The position numbers were made by a program, and so were the translations under genes. A stretch of DNA of 64,000 nt, from sequence record OZ035771.1. One strand, given 5' to 3'. The notes beneath the pieces are model-generated. The model worked only from the letters and a program-made list of their open reading frames with translations, had not been told where the DNA came from and did not search any database. Of this stretch, positions 46,505-61,501 are shown piece by piece. Numbering within the stretch: the first letter of the stretch is position 1; each line of letters begins with the position of its first letter. This stretch comes from Phapecoctavirus DIJ07P2.

Positions 46505-46861
46505 ATGAAAAAATTAATCTTAGCCACATTGCTGGCTACCGTAAGCTTCACCACTTACGCTCAAAAATTTGTAGCAGTTAAAACAGATATTGGTAAAGAT
46601 GTTGTGATCACAGGCAACAAGTTTTACTATACACCTGGGAATGGTGTTCTAGAAGAGTGCAAAGATGTTGAGGCATATACAGGAAAAGAAGATAACACGG
46701 AACGTCCTTTTTATTCGATTATAGCTACTTGCAAAAATGAAATAGTAGCTATTAAACAATACAAAGATGCACCTGGAGGAGAGTACTTATTAATCAAGAA
46801 TATTAAGAGTGAAAAAACTGCAAAGTTTACAGTAATTATTTTAAAAGGAGAAACGTTCTAA
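46505..46861 (+). CDS. secreted protein (118 aa)
   Basis: ATG 46505 with SD aggaggg; signal peptide MKKLILATLLATVSFTTYAQ. Confidence 0.45.
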   Translation: MKKLILATLLATVSFTTYAQKFVAVKTDIGKDVVITGNKFYYTPGNGVLEECKDVEAYTGKEDNTERPFYSIIATCKNEIVAIKQYKDAPGGEYLLIKNIKSEKTAKFTVIILKGETF

Positions 46862-48000
46862 TGAAATACACTATTTTTGGAGATGTGGCTGTTGTAAATA
46901 AGGAATATGGTGTTGAAGCTAATAAACTTCCTGCTGGAGTTTGGGTTGTCAACTGCGATCCGCACGGTAACTACTCTTTAGTGCGTGGCGAAAGTTTCTC
47001 TCTTCCGAACACTCTTTATGGGGAAACTAAAGACCGCGCCGCACATATTATTAAAACATTTGCTCGTCGTAGTAAAGAAGGTAAAAATACTGGGGTGTTA
47101 CTGACAGGGACAAAGGGCAGTGGTAAGACGATGTTAGCTAAACTGATTAGCATGTCCCTAATGTCCACAGAAGGTTTAGGTATTCCAACCATTTTGGTGA
47201 CACAGCCTTACACAGATGCTGGATTCTTAGAATTTATGAGTAAAATTACAGATCGTGCTGTTGTTTTATTTGACGAGTTTGATAAAGTGTACGCTAAGAA
47301 AGAAGATCAGGAAGCACTGTTGACCTTGTTGGATGGAACAGGAAGTGGAAATAAACTTTACATCCTCACTAAAAATAGTGGCTATATCTCGGAATATTTT
47401 GTAAACCGTCCTAGTCGTATCTACTACAGTTTCAATTACGATAAACTGTCTAGTGAAACTATGTTAGATTACTTGGATAAGAACTTGGTAAATAAAAAGC
47501 ACGTAGATAACTTCCAACGTTTATGGGATGTTAGCACAGAGTTGTCTTTCGATGTTATTCAAGGCATTGTAGAAGAATTGAATTTCTATCCAAAAATGAC
47601 TTTTAAAGAATGTCTGGAAATGATGGGTATTTCTTTAGGCAACGATGCTAAATGGAATGTGGCTTCTATCGTAGCTAATGGCAAAACACTGAAGGTGAAT
47701 TGGATCAATAACTGGCACGACTTCACCCCTACTAAGTTTTTGTCGGGTGCTTGTTCCCTGAACATCTATCTGCAAAGCTTGAAAGATGATGAAGTTGAAG
47801 CAATGGAAACCAACAGTTATGTTATCCTGGATGAAGATGGTGATCCACATATTGATCTATGTGCAACGGCGGATGGTCTAACTTGTGATCTGATTGAAGG
47901 TGGTAAGATTCTGGTTATGAGCACTACACCAGGAAACACTCTGCGAGTGGTGCTGGAGCCTGTAACACAACGTTCCACCACACTGGGTAGCGTGTTCTAA
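46861..48000 (+). CDS. AAA-type ATPase
   Basis: Walker A GVLLTGTKGSGKTMLAKLI and Walker B VVLFDEFDKV. Confidence 0.55.
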   Translation: MKYTIFGDVAVVNKEYGVEANKLPAGVWVVNCDPHGNYSLVRGESFSLPNTLYGETKDRAAHIIKTFARRSKEGKNTGVLLTGTKGSGKTMLAKLISMSLMSTEGLGIPTILVTQPYTDAGFLEFMSKITDRAVVLFDEFDKVYAKKEDQEALLTLLDGTGSGNKLYILTKNSGYISEYFVNRPSRIYYSFNYDKLSSETMLDYLDKNLVNKKHVDNFQRLWDVSTELSFDVIQGIVEELNFYPKMTFKECLEMMGISLGNDAKWNVASIVANGKTLKVNWINNWHDFTPTKFLSGACSLNIYLQSLKDDEVEAMETNSYVILDEDGDPHIDLCATADGLTCDLIEGGKILVMSTTPGNTLRVVLEPVTQRSTTLGSVF

Positions 48001-48042: not shown

Positions 48043-48077
48043 TTGATTTCAGTTTAATAGGAAGAGAATTGTTAGAT

Positions 48078-49076
48078 ATGCCAGTAAAGAAGAGTATTGA
48101 AACATATATGGAAGAATGTAAGCCGATAGCTGAGGCTAAAGGGATTACCATTCTCGGCACGTATGGAGAAGATAAAGGTGTGCATACGAAGATGATCAAT
48201 AGTTGTGAGCATGGTCATGAATGGAATACTACAACGTTTCACAGTTTTAAAGATGGTCGAGGTTGTCCTAAGTGCGCCTACAGGGAACGTTCGAAAAAGA
48301 GAAGCAAAGCTATCACTATTCCAGACCAGCAACACATACAAGATTTTATGAAGGTAGGTAAATTTAAGGAAGGCACTATTTTCACCAATACAGGGGAACG
48401 TAAAGGGTGTGATATAGTATGGATGGTTGAATGTCCTGTTTGCTCTCATGATGAATATGTGGAAGCTGGGGTGTGTGATGGTAAATTCTATGCTACCGGA
48501 AGTCATCTTAAACGTGGGTGTCTCCCTTGCCGCTGTTCTACGAGTTACAAATACACAGAGGATCAGACCACCTATAGAACAAGAAAGGAAGTAGAAAGGA
48601 GAGGATATATATTGGTAGGATGGATCGGTAAACCTTCAACAATGGGTAAGTTTAAATATAGATGTAAGGAGCACGGGGAACAGATAGGGCGTGCAGATGG
48701 TTTGCTACATAAGGGGAGTGGGTGTCCGCAGTGCGGGGGCCAAAATCAACAACAATGTTACATTAATCATATTTATGATGAAGATGGTATTCTTTGTGCA
48801 CTGAAGTTTGGTATTGCCAATAGTAGTGATCGCCGTATCAAAGAACAGAATAGCCGCAATGTGTTTACTATGAGACAAGTTCAAGTGTGGCAGTTCCCCA
48901 CTGTGAAGCAGTGTAAAAATTCAGAAAAGTATTGCAAAAAGGTGTTAGACACAGAAGCAGTGAGCAAATATGCTATGCCAGACGGCTACACAGAAACAGT
49001 GGAGCTATCTTGTCTGGCATCAATACAAAACATTTATAAACTTTATGGTGGAATATTACAGGAGGAAACATGTTAG
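48078..49076 (+). CDS. zinc-ribbon-rich protein with C-terminal GIY-YIG/T5orf172-like region
   Basis: four CxxC pairs (CPKCAY, CPVCSH, CLPCRC, CPQCGG); C-terminal YINHIYDEDGILCALKFGIANSSDRRIKEQ; ATG 48078 with SD aggaagag. Confidence 0.4.
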   Translation: MPVKKSIETYMEECKPIAEAKGITILGTYGEDKGVHTKMINSCEHGHEWNTTTFHSFKDGRGCPKCAYRERSKKRSKAITIPDQQHIQDFMKVGKFKEGTIFTNTGERKGCDIVWMVECPVCSHDEYVEAGVCDGKFYATGSHLKRGCLPCRCSTSYKYTEDQTTYRTRKEVERRGYILVGWIGKPSTMGKFKYRCKEHGEQIGRADGLLHKGSGCPQCGGQNQQQCYINHIYDEDGILCALKFGIANSSDRRIKEQNSRNVFTMRQVQVWQFPTVKQCKNSEKYCKKVLDTEAVSKYAMPDGYTETVELSCLASIQNIYKLYGGILQEETC

Positions 49077-49448: not shown

Positions 49449-49628
49449 ATGGCACGTTTAGCAGACCATGAAATCTTTAAACCTATTCTGAACCACTATG
49501 ATGAACTTAAAGCAGTGTTGGATTGTTATAGAGAGGATGAAGAACGTTTGGAAGTCAATCTTAAGATAGTTCTGATGAAAGCTTTTCAAGACGGGCAAGC
49601 TAAAGTTTTAGAAGGCATGAAAAAATGA
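49449..49628 (+). CDS. small hypothetical protein (59 aa)
   Basis: ATG 49449 with SD aaaggag, preferred over track start 49413. Confidence 0.4.
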   Translation: MARLADHEIFKPILNHYDELKAVLDCYREDEERLEVNLKIVLMKAFQDGQAKVLEGMKK

Positions 49629-50167
49629 GAATAACTGATGAATATGTATTCTTCTTTTCACATAAAGATGTGTTTAGTAATTGGTATATTGCACCCTTTA
49701 CAGAAACTGAACCAGGTTACAATGAGACTTTCTGTTGTGTTGAGCAATATATGATGTGGCGTAAGGCTTTGCTGTTCAAGGATCATGCGATTGCAGCAGC
49801 TATCCTTGATCACTCAACTATACGTGACAACGAGAGGAAACAAGCATACTACAAACGTATGGGTCGAGCGGTATCTGGTTTTAATAATGATATGTGGGAA
49901 GAGAACCGTGAGCGTATTGTTATGCGAGGTTTATGCTTGAAATATGTACAGAATCCAGATTTGTATGCAGACTTACACCTTTACCAATACAAAACGTTTG
50001 TTGAAGCAAGTCCTTACGATAAGGTTTACGGTATTGGAATGGGAATGTATGAACCAGGGGTGCTAAATCCGGTCAACTGGAAAGGGCAAAATCTTTTAGG
50101 TAAATATCATAACAAACTGATCGAAATACTTTTCCCAGACAAAATACCGCAAAGACGATATTTGTGA
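49625..50167 (+). CDS. NADAR (YbiA-like) domain protein
   Basis: FSNWYIAPF ... VEQYMMWRKALLF ... YKRMGRAV ... WEENRERIVMRGLCLKYVQNPDL ... EASPYDKVYGIGMG matches YbiA/NADAR pattern. Confidence 0.65.
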   Translation: MRITDEYVFFFSHKDVFSNWYIAPFTETEPGYNETFCCVEQYMMWRKALLFKDHAIAAAILDHSTIRDNERKQAYYKRMGRAVSGFNNDMWEENRERIVMRGLCLKYVQNPDLYADLHLYQYKTFVEASPYDKVYGIGMGMYEPGVLNPVNWKGQNLLGKYHNKLIEILFPDKIPQRRYL

Positions 50168-50222
50168 TATTTTAACTTTTTTCATTTTTAGAACAAAGGT
50201 GTCACTTTGTAGCACAGAAATA

Positions 50223-50260
50223 AGGCTCCTACAGCACCGTAGAGAGCCTATTATTTTGTC
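50223..50260 (+). terminator. rho-independent terminator after rightward early block
   Basis: aggctcctacagcaccgtagagagcct interrupted hairpin followed by attattttgtc. Confidence 0.5.
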
Positions 50261-50390
50261 CTATACAAACCCTTGTCTTTTTCAGTTTGCATCACTAGGA
50301 TTCGATCTGAGTGGGTTCCTGAAGGTCTGCCAATAAGATTAAAGGTTATCTCAAATTCCCACTACCTATTATCTCAAAAATCCCTCAAAT

Positions 50391-50596
50391 TATTTAAACT
50401 TTTTAAGAATTTACAAAAGTGAAAGTTGAAAACCAAAATTTAAAGTTTAGGAAAATTATCTTAAAATGTCAGATACAAAACAAAACTCAAAAGTCAAGGA
50501 AAATTTTAAAAATTTTGCGCGCCCACAGTATTTAAAGTTTTTTTGCTTTTACAAAAATGAAAGTACAAAAGCAAAATTTAAAGTTTACAAAAATTT
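50391..50596. repeat. AT-rich direct repeats (two ~65-bp copies plus a degenerate middle copy)
   Basis: tatttaaaCtttttaagaatttacaaaaGtgaaagt...caaaatttaaagttta versus tatttaaaGtttttttgcttttacaaaaAtgaaagt...caaaatttaaagttta. Confidence 0.6.
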
Positions 50597-50607
50597 ATGC
50601 AGATGGG

Positions 50608-50721
50608 AATGAGAAGAGTTCTCATATGGAAATGCAAATGATAATGATTCGCATTTAGGTTTATAAATGAGATTGATTCTTATTTGATAAGGTAAATGAT
50701 AATCATTCTCATTTAGAGAAT
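50608..50721. promoter_or_regulatory. cluster of palindromic TTCTCAT/ATGAGAA-type boxes resembling Fur boxes
   Basis: atgagaaGAGttctcat (perfect IR); aaatgataatgattcgcattt; aaatgataatcattctcatttagagaatg (cattctc-N5-gagaatg). Confidence 0.45.
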
Positions 50722-50972
50722 GACGCGCAGGGGCGGTGTTTGTCTCGCGCTCCCGTGTCCCCTCGCCATGTAATAAGAATAACAGATCCAGCCAGGAAAG
50801 CAAGCGATTATTTTATCTTTACATTTCTTTACAAATATATAGCGCCCAGCCTACCGGCGATCAACCTTCCAACCAGCGCCCTGGTATGTTAGCCCCGCCT
50901 TTACGCCGTGGGGGTGGCGCTTCCTCTTCTGTATGTAAAACAGTATAAGCCCGATCCCTGGGCTTGTCAAGA

Positions 50973-51239
50973 TTATTTTTTGTTTTCTTGCCAGGTTAGG
51001 ACACCTAGCCAAAAATGAATATCACCTTTTCCCCAATGTGGTATATTGCTTTCTTTCCCACCTTCACGCGCCCAGGTAAAACCGCCCGTGTAACTTTGTA
51101 ATTGATAACTATCCTCGACCTTATAATCTGATAGGTTGAGAACTGTTTCAACCTTTAAGCCCGTTGCGCTTGCTACCTGGTGCACCGTGCCGCCTTGCCA
51201 GCCCAATGAGTGCATAAGGTGTAATGTAGTATTTGTCAT
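50973..51239 (-). CDS. hypothetical protein (88 aa), isolated leftward gene
   Basis: track ORF; only weak SD; sits inside otherwise non-coding GC-rich island, so uncertain. Confidence 0.3.
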   Translation of the reverse strand: MTNTTLHLMHSLGWQGGTVHQVASATGLKVETVLNLSDYKVEDSYQLQSYTGGFTWAREGGKESNIPHWGKGDIHFWLGVLTWQENKK

Positions 51240-51348
51240 GGTGTCGCCCTTTCTTTGTTGTGCGCCCTGGTTGGCGCGGTAGAAAGATGATAGCCCTTTC
51301 CTTTATATATAGCAAGCAAAAAGAAAATAAAAAAGATTGAAAAAGTGA

Positions 51349-51406
51349 TTGACGTTCGCCAGGTGGCGGCATAATATTTACCACGTAGGGCGGCAATGGT
51401 GCCGCT
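51349..51406 (+). promoter_or_regulatory. early promoter + 5' stem-loop cassette, unit 1
   Basis: TTGACG, N16, ATAATA; ccacgtaggg then stem-loop ggcggcaATGGtgccgct; ATG 51427. Confidence 0.55.
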
Positions 51407-51426
51407 CATTATTTGGAATTAAGATC

Positions 51427-51624
51427 ATGGCAACATTGCACATTGTGGCGAAAGCTGGACAAATCAACGTAGTAGTAAACGGTTTTACTGAGTTCAGTCA
51501 TCCCCAGGATGATCATGAAACGGTTTTATCTTTCATTGATTCACTGTTAGAAATGGGAGTCATTACAGAAGACCAGCACGCTACAAAATGCAAACGCGTT
51601 AATCAGATTGCAGGAATAGAATAA
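51427..51624 (+). CDS. small early protein (65 aa)
   Basis: first ATG downstream of cassette 1; track start 51349 lies in promoter. Confidence 0.5.
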   Translation: MATLHIVAKAGQINVVVNGFTEFSHPQDDHETVLSFIDSLLEMGVITEDQHATKCKRVNQIAGIE

Positions 51625-51630
51625 AAAGTA

Positions 51631-51690
51631 TTGACAACAACCAACAACCTGATAAGATGTATCACATAAGGCGGGAAATGGTTTCCCGCT
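51631..51690 (+). promoter_or_regulatory. early promoter + 5' stem-loop cassette, unit 2
   Basis: TTGACA, N16, TAAGAT; stem-loop ggcgggaaaTGGtttcccgc; SD gagag; ATG 51714. Confidence 0.6.
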
Positions 51691-51713
51691 CACAACAGAA
51701 GAGAGAAATCATC

Positions 51714-51986
51714 ATGGCATCATATAGCGCAACAATGATCGTAGCTGGTACCACTGGTAAACCTATGAGCGGTGGCGGATCTTTCGCTAATATTAATATT
51801 GATGGGCGTTTATCCCTGGACGCAGCGATCACCGTGGCGCGGGAAACATTTAAGAAAGAATGTGATTTCAACAAGCAAGATTATTTAGGTTTTGCTATTG
51901 AAAAAACGGCGCGTTTTGTTGATTATAAAAGTCCGAAAATGGTTGATACTACACTAAAAGCGCAAGATGTAGCCTTTTTGCTTTAA
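51714..51986 (+). CDS. small early protein (90 aa)
   Basis: ATG 51714 with SD; track start 51657 lies in -10 region. Confidence 0.5.
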   Translation: MASYSATMIVAGTTGKPMSGGGSFANINIDGRLSLDAAITVARETFKKECDFNKQDYLGFAIEKTARFVDYKSPKMVDTTLKAQDVAFLL

Positions 51987-51988
51987 GG

Positions 51989-52046
51989 CTTGACATTAAC
52001 GAATAATTTGTTAATATGTTACATAAAGCGGGAACTATTCCCGCTA
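51989..52046 (+). promoter_or_regulatory. early promoter + 5' stem-loop cassette, unit 3
   Basis: TTGACA, N16, TAATAT; stem-loop agcgggaaCTAttcccgct; ATG 52063. Confidence 0.6.
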
Positions 52047-59980: not shown

Positions 59981-60059
59981 CCCGAACAATGTTGATAGCT
60001 TTCGCCTATGAAAAACCGACACAGAACAAAACTGAATAAATCGCGGTATCGAGCTAATC

Positions 60060-60480
60060 AACCAGCAAACGAATAACCATACCTCCCAGGGTTACAGGCT
60101 GTTAGAGAGCCATTTAGAGCGGTTAAAATCGATCAACAACCAACAACAAACCATCAAAAACACCCTTTTACCTCCTTTCTAGTGCAATGATAACCATTAT
60201 CATCTACCCATGATTATCTATGCAATATAAGCGCATAATTATAATGTTGATAATAGTTCGCAACAACTAACCAACAAACAACATAAAACAATAAGCAAAC
60301 TAATCATAATCAAAGGAATAATAGCAAGATGATTGATAACGACAAACAATCGAACCATGATGAATACTAAGCAAGATAACGATAACACGACAAAACAACC
60401 AACTAACGAACAATAACAAACGAAACCATTAAAATAATAACTATTAGCAAAATAGTGCCTGAATGAAATCATTACAAAAC
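60060..60480. repeat. strand-biased A+C-rich (plus strand) non-coding tract with short caacaa/gataacga-type repeats
   Basis: plus strand nearly devoid of G and T runs, e.g. caaccaacaacaaaccatcaaaaacaccc and gataacgacaaacaatcgaacc / gataacgataacacgacaaaacaacc. Confidence 0.5.
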
Positions 60481-60507
60481 GAATCATTCACAGAGTCATC
60501 ATTAGCA

Positions 60508-60660
60508 CGCTATGCCGGACACATAGCGAGCTAATAATAAGCCAACTACACCCCAACAATCATAACCATCGGTGACGGTTATTTCTTGTTACTGCGTAGC
60601 TTGCAATAATTGCAAGCGTAATGACGCTTACACTTATTGCGCTGGCTTATTATTAGCATT
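60508..60660. repeat. nested inverted repeats (potential cruciform / large stem-loop)
   Basis: cgctatg-N7-catagcg (60508-60528); 14-bp arms gctaataataagcc (60530-60543) and ggcttattattagc (60644-60657) flanking perfect 19-bp palindrome gcttgcaataattgcaagc (60599-60617). Confidence 0.55.
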
Positions 60661-60964
60661 ATATGTAATTACCAAGATCATAACATTAGCGCAATAACAA
60701 TAGTCATTGTAATAATTACATGAGTTATCACTATCGTTCAGTGTGATCATCATTAGCACAGTGAATAATTGCACGTAGCAACATGAGCGAATAGCGACAG
60801 GTTGCATAGTGTGCACATAGTGTATAAACATACAAGAAAATAAAGGCTAATCTTTTGGGGGCGAATACTATCGCGTAGCGATATGTTGAGCACCTTCTCT
60901 TAAACGTAAATAAAATCAGAAAATTCTTGATTTATTTTAGTTTTTATGTTAATAAACGTTTAAA

Positions 60965-60983
60965 TAATAATCATTCTCATATA
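60965..60983. promoter_or_regulatory. TTCTCAT-type Fur-box-like site
   Basis: ataataatcattctcatat. Confidence 0.4.
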
Positions 60984-61140
60984 AATAATAGTCTGCTTGT
61001 CATGAGCGGGATTAGTTGACAATGTTCCGTCATATGATGAAGTTGCCAAGCCATTGATAAATAAGTGTTTGTGTGATTTATAATCAGGTGGCCCACCTTG
61101 TCGCTATGTTGGCATGAGCCTTGCATAAGTCATTGAATAC

Positions 61141-61166
61141 GAATGATAATTATTCTCATTCGCATG
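61141..61166. promoter_or_regulatory. TTCTCAT-type Fur-box-like palindromic site
   Basis: gaatgataattattctcattcgcatg (gaatga-N9-tcattc). Confidence 0.4.
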
Positions 61167-61501
61167 ATATTTGGGAATTGTCGCTGCGTGGACCTGACGG
61201 CCCGAAAATTCGCGTTAAGCACTTCTTACGTATACGCCATGATTTTTGCCATATGATATTGATTCTATTAGATATTCTTGCCATTATTGCCATGAAACAT
61301 GGTGTCCCGAAATAATCTCTCCCCGTAGATATTTTGGGTTACTTTTTATACAAGAGTGGGGTGTCAAAAATAATCAGTATATATGGGATAATTGATAGGA
61401 ATCCCCTATGATAATTCGATTGTAATTCCCTAAGATTGATCGTATGATGTTGGTGATTGATGATTGCCATGAAAGATGGCTAACGATGAGAGGAGATTGT
61501 C

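Follow-up and report, generated by a model that had tools for sequence, protein, structure and literature searches.

A conserved direct-repeat array of phAPEC8-like phages as a possible iteron-type origin or unwinding site

What might a cluster of AT-rich direct repeats do in a non-coding gap at the inner border of the early genes of a coliphage? The question is posed by positions 50386-50595 of a 64,000-nt stretch of Phapecoctavirus DIJ07P2 (sequence record OZ035771.1), hereafter the window. Many genomes of Phapecoctavirus (Stephanstirmvirinae; phAPEC8-like myophages of E. coli, ~150 kb) share 94-96% identity with positions 49500-52000 of the window, and the intergenic part alone shows 99.9% identity to ESCO5; judged by these matches, the window comes from a Phapecoctavirus, that is, from a phAPEC8-like coliphage. 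We find that the repeats constitute a single-copy cis element at the DNA level, in which five or six boxes of one orientation are arranged in three bipartite units of 66-72 bp. Our tentative reading of this element is an iteron-type origin of replication, or a site of unwinding, that is activated by transcription.

A single-copy array in easily melted DNA

The repeats sit in an 805-bp gap without conserved open reading frames (ORFs), at 50168-50972. A repeat search recovered a 72-nt direct repeat, the two copies of which (units 1 and 3, Table 1) are offset by 138 bp and share 82% identity, as well as a 29-nt family in which a third, weaker copy (79%) of the 3' part of the repeat stands between the two full units, at 50477-50505. 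Units 1 and 3 agree at 59 of 72 positions. In 300 dinucleotide-preserving shuffles of the 271-bp AT-rich stretch itself, the corresponding figure was 37.7 ± 1.7 and the maximum was 44; therefore, the AT-richness of the region (25% G+C) is not the cause of the repeat. A previous sequence-only reading of this DNA had spoken of two nearly identical repeats with a degenerate copy between them. The repetition is real and its boxes are indeed identical, but the phrase is generous for the whole units; the degenerate copy is also present, as a decayed middle unit (unit 2).

Two elements are identical between units 1 and 3, namely AAAATTTAAAGTTTA (starting at 50435 and 50573) and TTTACAAAARTGAAAGT (50410 and 50548). 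Boxes A and B have the common core ATTTAAA(G/C)TTT, and five or six boxes can be recognized at 50389-50587, all on one strand, with start-to-start spacings of 46, 20, 27, 45, and 46 bp. The exact core 11-mer is found three times in the array, next to one copy with a single mismatch (ATTTAAACTTT, 50392). Outside the array, neither the window nor positions 1-100 kb of ESCO5 has an exact copy, and the two together cover the genome of ~150 kb. A dispersed phage promoter motif was rejected on these grounds, the boxes being confined to the array within ~150 kb. The T4-late-like motifs TATAAATA and TTTAAATA showed no enrichment. Sigma-70 promoters within the units were also considered, TTTACA-18-CAAAAT matching at 9 of 12 positions, but inspection by eye found no matching -10 element in the units of phage VEcB. 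When other viral contigs were scanned with a gapped pattern for the same type of unit, only a phiWec-like contig (twice) and single chance matches were returned.

Nearest-neighbor energies identify 50388-50587 as the 200-bp duplex with the lowest stability in the whole window (-227.5 versus -256.8 ± 8.7 kcal/mol, z about +3.4). Among 100-bp stretches, the repeats come second to the start of the terminal repeat (60889 on). In eight relatives, the repeat zone lies at or beside a local stability minimum (z from +1.0 to +2.3). The term "iteron-like" of the sequence-only reading is thus a fair one, considering the cluster of same-orientation boxes, the core that is unique in the genome, and the location in the least stable 200-bp duplex. 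Intrinsic curvature was discarded as an explanation, since the A/T-tract power spectrum of the repeat zone in ten phages revealed no shared phasing of 10-11 bp.

The repeats are neither coding nor structured RNA. The sole ORF across them (48 aa, 50466-50612) loses its ATG in phiWec181, which rules against a small protein gene and bears out the earlier description of the region as non-coding. A search of Rfam gave no match at E ≤ 1 for the region, and the repeat RNA folds worse than shuffled sequence on both strands (z of +1.0 and +1.5). A structured RNA was rejected on the basis of these two results, which together favor a role at the DNA level.

Layout and box sequence in two subfamilies

The sequence-only reading had proposed a comparison with relatives, which might have found the repeats not to be conserved. 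The outcome was the opposite: in 63 of the 70 matching records, the repeat region shows 96-100% identity (at least 95% over the 271 bp that surround the repeats), and the layout recurs in two subfamilies. The surrounding 2.5 kb, flanking genes included, are mostly 90-95% identical; the repeat region is better conserved than the flanking genes. Unit 1 is 100% identical in ESCO13 and tuntematon. In phiWec181, the most divergent Phapecoctavirus-like phage, units 1 and 3 retain 81% identity, unit 2 59%, the left spacer 62%, and the palindromes that follow the array 60%. VEcB and JohannJBalmer (Justusliebigvirus) and Klebsiella phage KP13-26 have three good units each, with a spacing of 66-75 bp; the middle unit is intact in these phages and decayed in Phapecoctavirus.

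In Vequintavirinae (CR8, BIS47, and nomo), three direct repeats with a spacing of 63-78 bp occupy the same place and are unrelated in sequence, each unit containing two CGATCG-type boxes followed by T-rich or GTAT tails. The box sequence differs by subfamily, being TTTAAAGTTT in Stephanstirmvirinae versus CGATCGTATT in Vequintavirinae. Both subfamilies nevertheless keep the same layout, in which three 63-78-bp repeats are followed by 3-4 Fur-box-like palindromes and then by GC-rich blocks with two ORF-less leftward promoters; the combination of three repeats and palindromes was seen in VEcB, JohannJBalmer, KP13-26, phiWec181, CR8, BIS47, and nomo. Recurrence of the layout in both subfamilies with unrelated boxes indicates that the layout is old and the box sequence lineage specific. 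This in turn points to a phage-encoded binder rather than a shared host architectural protein, and the boxes are presumably bound by a sequence-specific protein of the phage itself.

Within each genome, box B is uniform at positions that differ between genomes: both units of phiWec181 read AAATTCTAAAGTTTACG and all three of VEcB AAA(G/C)TTCAA. Concerted evolution of whole units was not supported, the identity between units 1 and 3 within a genome (0.80) being about the same as the orthologous identity between genomes (0.83-0.86); the signal of parallel change is therefore confined to the boxes, and there to box B only. As a separate observation, the units of CR8 (1757-1950 of L009) and BIS47 (1736-1936 of L010) contain two GATC-containing boxes each, ~20 bp apart (CGATCG...GATCGTAT), which would be paired Dam-methylation sites. 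The units of Stephanstirmvirinae contain no GATC.

Promoters, palindromes, and genes around the array

To the right of the array, two predicted leftward promoters, P_L1 and P_L2 (Table 1), both aim at the palindromes and the repeats, with no conserved ORF downstream. Their hexamers are positionally conserved in 12 lineages with varying spacers, P_L1 elsewhere being TTGCAA-17-TATATT, TTGATC-16-TATTAT, and others. The P_L2 spacer is a hairpin following the stop codon of an 88-aa ORF, and the spacers of P_L2 in the 12 lineages, which include Vequintavirinae without this ORF, are unrelated. Two GC-rich blocks downstream of the promoters are 88-96% conserved (block 2, 88-95%) versus 40-60% for their flanks, and both can be followed as far as Vequintavirinae. 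Block 2 is a candidate for the 5' part of a leftward non-coding transcript; it contains a hairpin with a variable loop, in which CCAG/CTGG is changed to CCGG/CCGG in CR8. RNAalifold yielded -1.9/-3.7 kcal/mol for block 1 and -14.4/-14.6 kcal/mol for block 2 on the two strands, with no decisive covariation in either block, and neither has an Rfam match. The minus strand of 50714-50972 may be considered a candidate non-coding RNA locus absent from Rfam, and that of block 2 displays a strong Shine-Dalgarno-like GGAAGGU(G/U)GAUC.

The palindromes adjoin the repeats in every lineage, and their motif accounts for 14 strand-hits versus 0.5 expected. The best match to the Fur consensus GATAATGATAATCATTATC (PMC4506495), 16 of 19 positions, is at 50692, with overlapping matches shifted by 6 bp at 50686 and 50698; allowing up to 5 mismatches, the window contains 27 matches versus 5.8 in shuffles, concentrated at this site and around the terminal repeat. 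The half-site consensus of the phage palindromes is TGAGAAT and not TGATAAT, and the binder may be a protein other than Fur. Further Fur-box-like palindromes are found in or near the terminal repeat (60186-60204, 60963-60981, and 61142-61160), the one at 61142 overlapping the -10 element of a promoter-like TTGCAT-17-GATAAT. In one deposited record, the palindromes are the sole part annotated, as "repeat_region."

The 20-mer that matches the CpxR-box consensus (PMC4846824) is 100% conserved in all aligned phages of the two subfamilies. It lies 12-13 bp upstream of the -35 element of P_L1, or 3 bp in other lineages, these positions being about one helical turn apart. The same 20-mer was also noticed 7-8 bp upstream of a sigma-70 -35 element in the terminal repeats of T5-like phages and in several contigs from uncultivated phages (five copies in L039). 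Another recurrent motif is the leader GTAGGGCGGCAATG, which has seven plus-strand copies in the early array (51385, 52912, 53553, 55017, 55873, 57057, and 58284) versus 0.16 expected; it belongs to a 5' hairpin that lies directly downstream from early promoters and also follows a T5-like pre-early promoter.

Table 1. Features in and around the repeat array, with positions in the window
Feature	Position	Strand	Remarks
Terminator hairpin GGCTC-CTAC / GTAG-a-GAGCC with T-rich tail	50224-50259	+	Read from sequence; left limit of module
24-bp tandem repeat x2.1, TTATCTCAAA(t/a)(t/a)CCC...	50346-50394	+	Tandem Repeats Finder, 76% matches, score 54
Direct-repeat unit 1	50386-50457	+	Box A1, central element, box B1
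Box A1 ATTATTTAAACTTTTT	50389-50404	+	Unit 1
Central element TTTACAAAAGTGAAAGT	50410-50426	+	Unit 1
Box B1 AAAATTTAAAGTTTA	50435-50449	+	Unit 1
Middle unit 2, decayed	50455-50523	+	Boxes A2 and B2, clamp
Box A2 ATTATCTTAAAATGT, decayed	50455-50469	+	Unit 2
Box B2 AAAACTCAAAAGTCA, decayed	50482-50496	+	Unit 2
GCGCGCC clamp	50517-50523	+	Unit 2
Direct-repeat unit 3	50524-50595	+	Box A3, central element, box B3
Box A3 AGTATTTAAAGTTTTT	50527-50542	+	Unit 3
Central element TTTACAAAAATGAAAGT	50548-50564	+	Unit 3
Box B3 AAAATTTAAAGTTTA	50573-50587	+	Unit 3
Four Fur-box-like 19-bp palindromes, consensus AATGAGAATCATTCTCATT, 29-bp period	50608-26, 50637-55, 50666-84, 50695-713		Repeat searches and motif count
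P_L1, predicted leftward sigma-70 promoter	50776-50803	-	-35 TTGCTT 50798-50803, 16-bp spacer, -10 TATTCT 50776-50781
Invariant 20-mer TCTTTACATTTCTTTACAAA	50816-50835	-	Between the two GC-rich blocks; regex match to GTAAA-N5-GTAAA, CpxR-box consensus
GC-rich conserved block 2	50836-50941	-	Directly downstream of P_L2
P_L2, predicted strong leftward sigma-70 promoter	50942-50970	-	TTGACA-17-TATACT, 11/12
88-aa ORF	50973-51239	-	Right of gap; at this position in Stephanstirmvirinae only

On its left side, the array is preceded by a 24-bp tandem repeat that abuts and overlaps unit 1; it is 90-97% conserved in the genus and 67% in phiWec181, and contains no DnaA consensus. Farther left stands a hairpin predicted to terminate the upstream rightward block, which was missing from the terminator scan, a scan that allows no bulges. 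It is kept in ESCO13, tuntematon, and phiWec181. On the other strand the hairpin is followed by TTATTTCT and may also stop leftward transcripts. The rightward block is closed by a plus-strand gene with a NADAR domain (49625-50167; Pfam PF08719, E = 8e-35); the product is a NADAR (YbiA-like) protein, labeled "GTP cyclohydrolase II" in the records of several relatives. The left neighbors of the gap vary between lineages. One of them, a 335-aa protein (48069-49076, plus strand) with homology to CapR, weak matches to T5orf172 and a treble-clef zinc finger, and the PHROG label "endonuclease," probably represents a homing endonuclease that was inserted 1.1 kb to the left of the gap. To the right of the 88-aa ORF extends the early array, in which every one of the small rightward genes has a sigma-70 promoter to itself, the first of these promoters being at 51349. 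The sequence-only reading correctly placed the repeats between the rightward block, with its terminator after the NADAR gene, and the early small-gene array, although ~750 bp of other conserved elements separate them from that first promoter.

Terminal repeats of 328 bp in Schickermooser and 458 bp in two Vequintaviruses have been reported (Korf 2019, PMC6563267), and the ends of the Schickermooser record confirm a repeat of 329 bp. Its equivalent in the window is 60889-61217, within a 1.5-kb non-coding stretch (60000-61500); the physical ends of the genome therefore fall inside the window. A distance of 10.6 kb, which includes the early array, separates the repeats from a physical end. The corresponding distance of the module is 14.1 kb in Schickermooser and, measured from the end of the record, 11.2-12.1 kb in HdK5 and EdH4. 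The record of phage ETEC-TG (OR786310.1, positions 2-274) begins exactly at the left edge of the repeat zone (from ~50339 in the window) and holds a second copy of this zone, which is probably an assembly break or overlap at the repeats and not a real terminus.

Candidate functions of the array

Boxes in the same orientation that occur once per genome, their uniformity within the genome, the easiest-to-melt DNA in which they lie, and the ORF-less promoters that face them are best explained by a protein-binding array in an unwinding region, and origin function at the repeats is plausible on this evidence. We infer protein binding, promoter activity, and a replication role, and tentatively propose the following scheme for a transcription-activated, iteron-type origin or unwinding site. 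The array would form the easily melted arm of a conserved non-coding module; transcripts from P_L2 and P_L1 would run leftward through the four palindromes into the array; a phage-encoded protein would occupy the boxes; and the bound protein and leftward transcription would jointly open the least stable duplex, allowing the phage replisome to load. Like iteron origins (lambda ori, P1, and plasmid origins), the array consists of several short boxes in the same orientation, in one cluster per genome, in or beside the least stable DNA, and its boxes are uniform within a genome, as expected for the sites of one specific protein. The primary origin of T7 comprises two tandem promoters and an AT-rich region, and oriF and ori(34) of T4 a promoter with a downstream unwinding element. 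Similar to these transcription-activated origins, two tandem gene-less promoters here face a segment at the border of the early region that is rich in AT and easily unwound. Unlike in T7 and T4, the promoters are predicted to be of the host sigma-70 type, with host-regulator-like boxes, and palindromes and GC-rich blocks keep them ~190-350 bp away from the AT-rich array.

A number of observations weigh against an origin. The IHF consensus WATCAANNNNTTR was found in the gap of none of the eight phages scanned. The DnaA box TTWTNCACA is absent in and beside the repeats of all eight and from anywhere in the gap in 6 of them, CR8 and BIS47 having one minus-strand match each, to the right of the palindromes and away from the repeats. 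The sequence-only reading had named DnaA, IHF, and Fis as possible binders; the first two are not supported by these consensus scans, and Fis sites were checked by eye only. No initiator or helicase-loader gene adjoins the gap, the neighbors being the NADAR gene, the homing-endonuclease-like gene, the 88-aa ORF, and small ORFs. An AAA ATPase gene 2.4 kb away (46861-48000) was considered as an initiator and is unsupported, with only generic AAA and PHROG "ATPase" matches. GC skew, which in the window is dominated by gene orientation, does not change sign at the repeats and has its cumulative minimum at ~44 kb, where gene orientation diverges. Furthermore, boxes of ~11-16 bp spaced by 20-46 bp in long bipartite units of 66-72 bp are unlike the classical iterons of 17-22 bp with a spacing of ~22 bp, and the array, unlike iteron origins, is neither in nor next to an initiator gene and has no adjoining DnaA box and no IHF consensus sites. 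One lineage (FBKp34) has two promoter-like 45-nt repeats in place of the three-unit array, and the repeat zone of CR8 is only mildly unstable (z of +1.0). The leftward RNA would be U-rich, which disfavors a stable R-loop primer, and both the activity of the promoters and the binding of protein are predictions. Finally, the region of T5 that shares the palindromes was reported not to be the origin (Davison, bioRxiv 10.1101/866236).

The missing origin hallmarks (initiator gene, DnaA boxes, and skew switch) speak for a different reading, in which the boxes would bind a phage-encoded regulator acting as a roadblock, silencer, or insulator, without any role in replication. Such a regulatory boundary element, which we regard as a lesser but genuine possibility, would regulate or block the two leftward promoters and set the terminal early block apart from the rightward block. 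The array indeed lies exactly between the terminator of the rightward block and P_L1/P_L2, at the inner border of the early array; operator-like palindromes and an activator-like box accompany the repeats in every case, while lineage-specific boxes in a conserved layout fit a co-evolving phage regulator. However, a hairpin terminator is already present 130 bp to the left, a roadblock needs no extreme duplex instability, and no candidate regulator was found: the 88-aa ORF, considered as the source of the binder, is absent from Vequintavirinae and its product has no match to a DNA-binding fold. The two conserved predicted promoters facing the region, the conserved GC-rich blocks downstream of them, the possible terminator at 50224-50259, and the depletion of secondary structure in the repeat RNA (z of +1.5) could also be accommodated by a function at the RNA level, the repeats being the unstructured, U-rich 3' part of a 550-700-nt leftward non-coding RNA from P_L2 or P_L1, such as a protein sponge. 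This is improbable: there is neither an Rfam match nor covariation, the units of Vequintavirinae are of quite different composition (47% GC in CR8), and the leftward transcript is hypothetical. The decay of the middle unit in Phapecoctavirus and the lack of the three-unit layout in FBKp34 would suit a functionless relic of an old local duplication, but given that the region is more conserved than the adjacent genes, that the layout is kept in two subfamilies despite complete turnover of the box sequence, and that parallel changes occurred in both copies, we consider a relic very unlikely. A packaging or terminase recognition site might be looked for in a single-copy cis element of a phage with short direct terminal repeats, yet hardly any credence can be given to it here: the terminal repeat and cut sites are 10.3 kb away (60889-61217) and the terminase gene ~70 kb away in ESCO5, and the distance of 10.6-14.1 kb from the ends rules out a direct role at packaging cut sites.

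A further explanation comes from phage T5, since BLAST of the gap also matched T5-like phages across the palindromes. Repeat Region 3 of T5 is the region of the injection stop signal and contains palE-J, DRC and DRE repeats, DnaA boxes, and nine DRD direct repeats (Davison, bioRxiv 10.1101/866236); Fur is not mentioned in that paper. Repeat Region 3 and the present module have in common a large size, the absence of ORFs, and a location where a terminal block of small early genes, ~10 kb long, ends on its inner side. The same Fur-box-like palindromes occur in both, represented in T5 by palE-palJ with the DRC repeats and in HASG4 by AAATGAGAATCATTCTCATTT, which is found where the left terminal repeat has its ORF-free end. 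The TCTTTACAnTTCTTTACAAA box and GTAGGGCGGCAATG leader of the present phage are likewise found in the terminal repeats of T5-like phages, and in T5-sized contigs the 20-mer occurs twice per genome, 7-8 bp upstream of the -35 element of a sigma-70 promoter with this leader. The module might hence be a counterpart of Repeat Region 3 that separates the terminal 10-14-kb early block during DNA entry, with the array in the role of the DRD repeats; the 66-bp DRE repeats were rejected as the counterpart, since the palindromes lie within them, and the DRD array offers a better analogue. Counted from the nearest terminus, both groups show one order (early genes, palindromes, and a lineage-specific direct-repeat array just distal to them), and the distances to a terminus are comparable, namely 9.6-10 kb in HASG4, 10.6 kb in the window, 11.2-12.1 kb in HdK5 and EdH4, and 14.1 kb in Schickermooser. 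In T5, DNA entry pauses ~8% of the genome inward of the end that enters first. Nonetheless, we deem such an equivalence unlikely. The direct repeats have no sequence in common, T5-like phages having six to nine copies of TGTGCRAATCCGACA, spaced by 25-81 bp immediately distal to the palindromes (the 15-bp DRD in T5), versus three bipartite 66-72-bp units here. The module lies outside the terminal repeat, which is only 329 bp long, whereas Repeat Region 3 belongs to the terminal repeat of T5, and early-type genes continue on the other side of the terminal repeat too. The module contains no paired DnaA boxes and no inverted repeats comparable to IRD'/IRC' (IRC/IRD) of T5, and tblastn of 16 ORFs from the HASG4 terminal repeat against the window and positions 1-100 kb of ESCO5 revealed no homologues of dmp or of the pre-early proteins A1 and A2, which T5 needs for the second step of DNA transfer, with nothing below E = 0.07. 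As cis elements are shared with T5 and pre-early proteins are not, host proteins would be the ones to bind these common elements.

An origin or unwinding site thus remains our preferred, if tentative, interpretation. In the literature we found no origin, repeat, or Fur description relevant to these repeats for these phages, and the array is a previously undescribed example of a phage cis-acting direct-repeat array, the interest of which lies mainly in its conserved partnership with host-regulator-like sites and in the parallel to the T5 repeat region. In rV5-like and phAPEC8-like phages, which infect a broad range of hosts and serve in phage therapy, neither the replication origins nor the regions of early control have so far been mapped, and the array provides a concrete, conserved, single-copy, and testable candidate, while the palindromes tie a long-unexplained region of T5 to two other phage groups. 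More speculatively, and with little likelihood in our estimate, the 0.8-kb module could be an early checkpoint common to unrelated virulent coliphages, namely T5-like siphoviruses and rV5- and phAPEC8-like myoviruses. Located at the inner border of the ~10-kb early block, it would respond to the iron status of the host (through Fur) and to envelope stress (through CpxR or an OmpR-family regulator) and accordingly gate either the uptake of the remaining genome, as in T5, or the start of replication, with the repeat array as the lineage-specific part recognized by a phage protein. The boxes with Fur and CpxR consensus suggest that virulent phages couple their early program to host regulators; if true, this would bear on the dependence of infection on host physiology and on the safe engineering of such phages.

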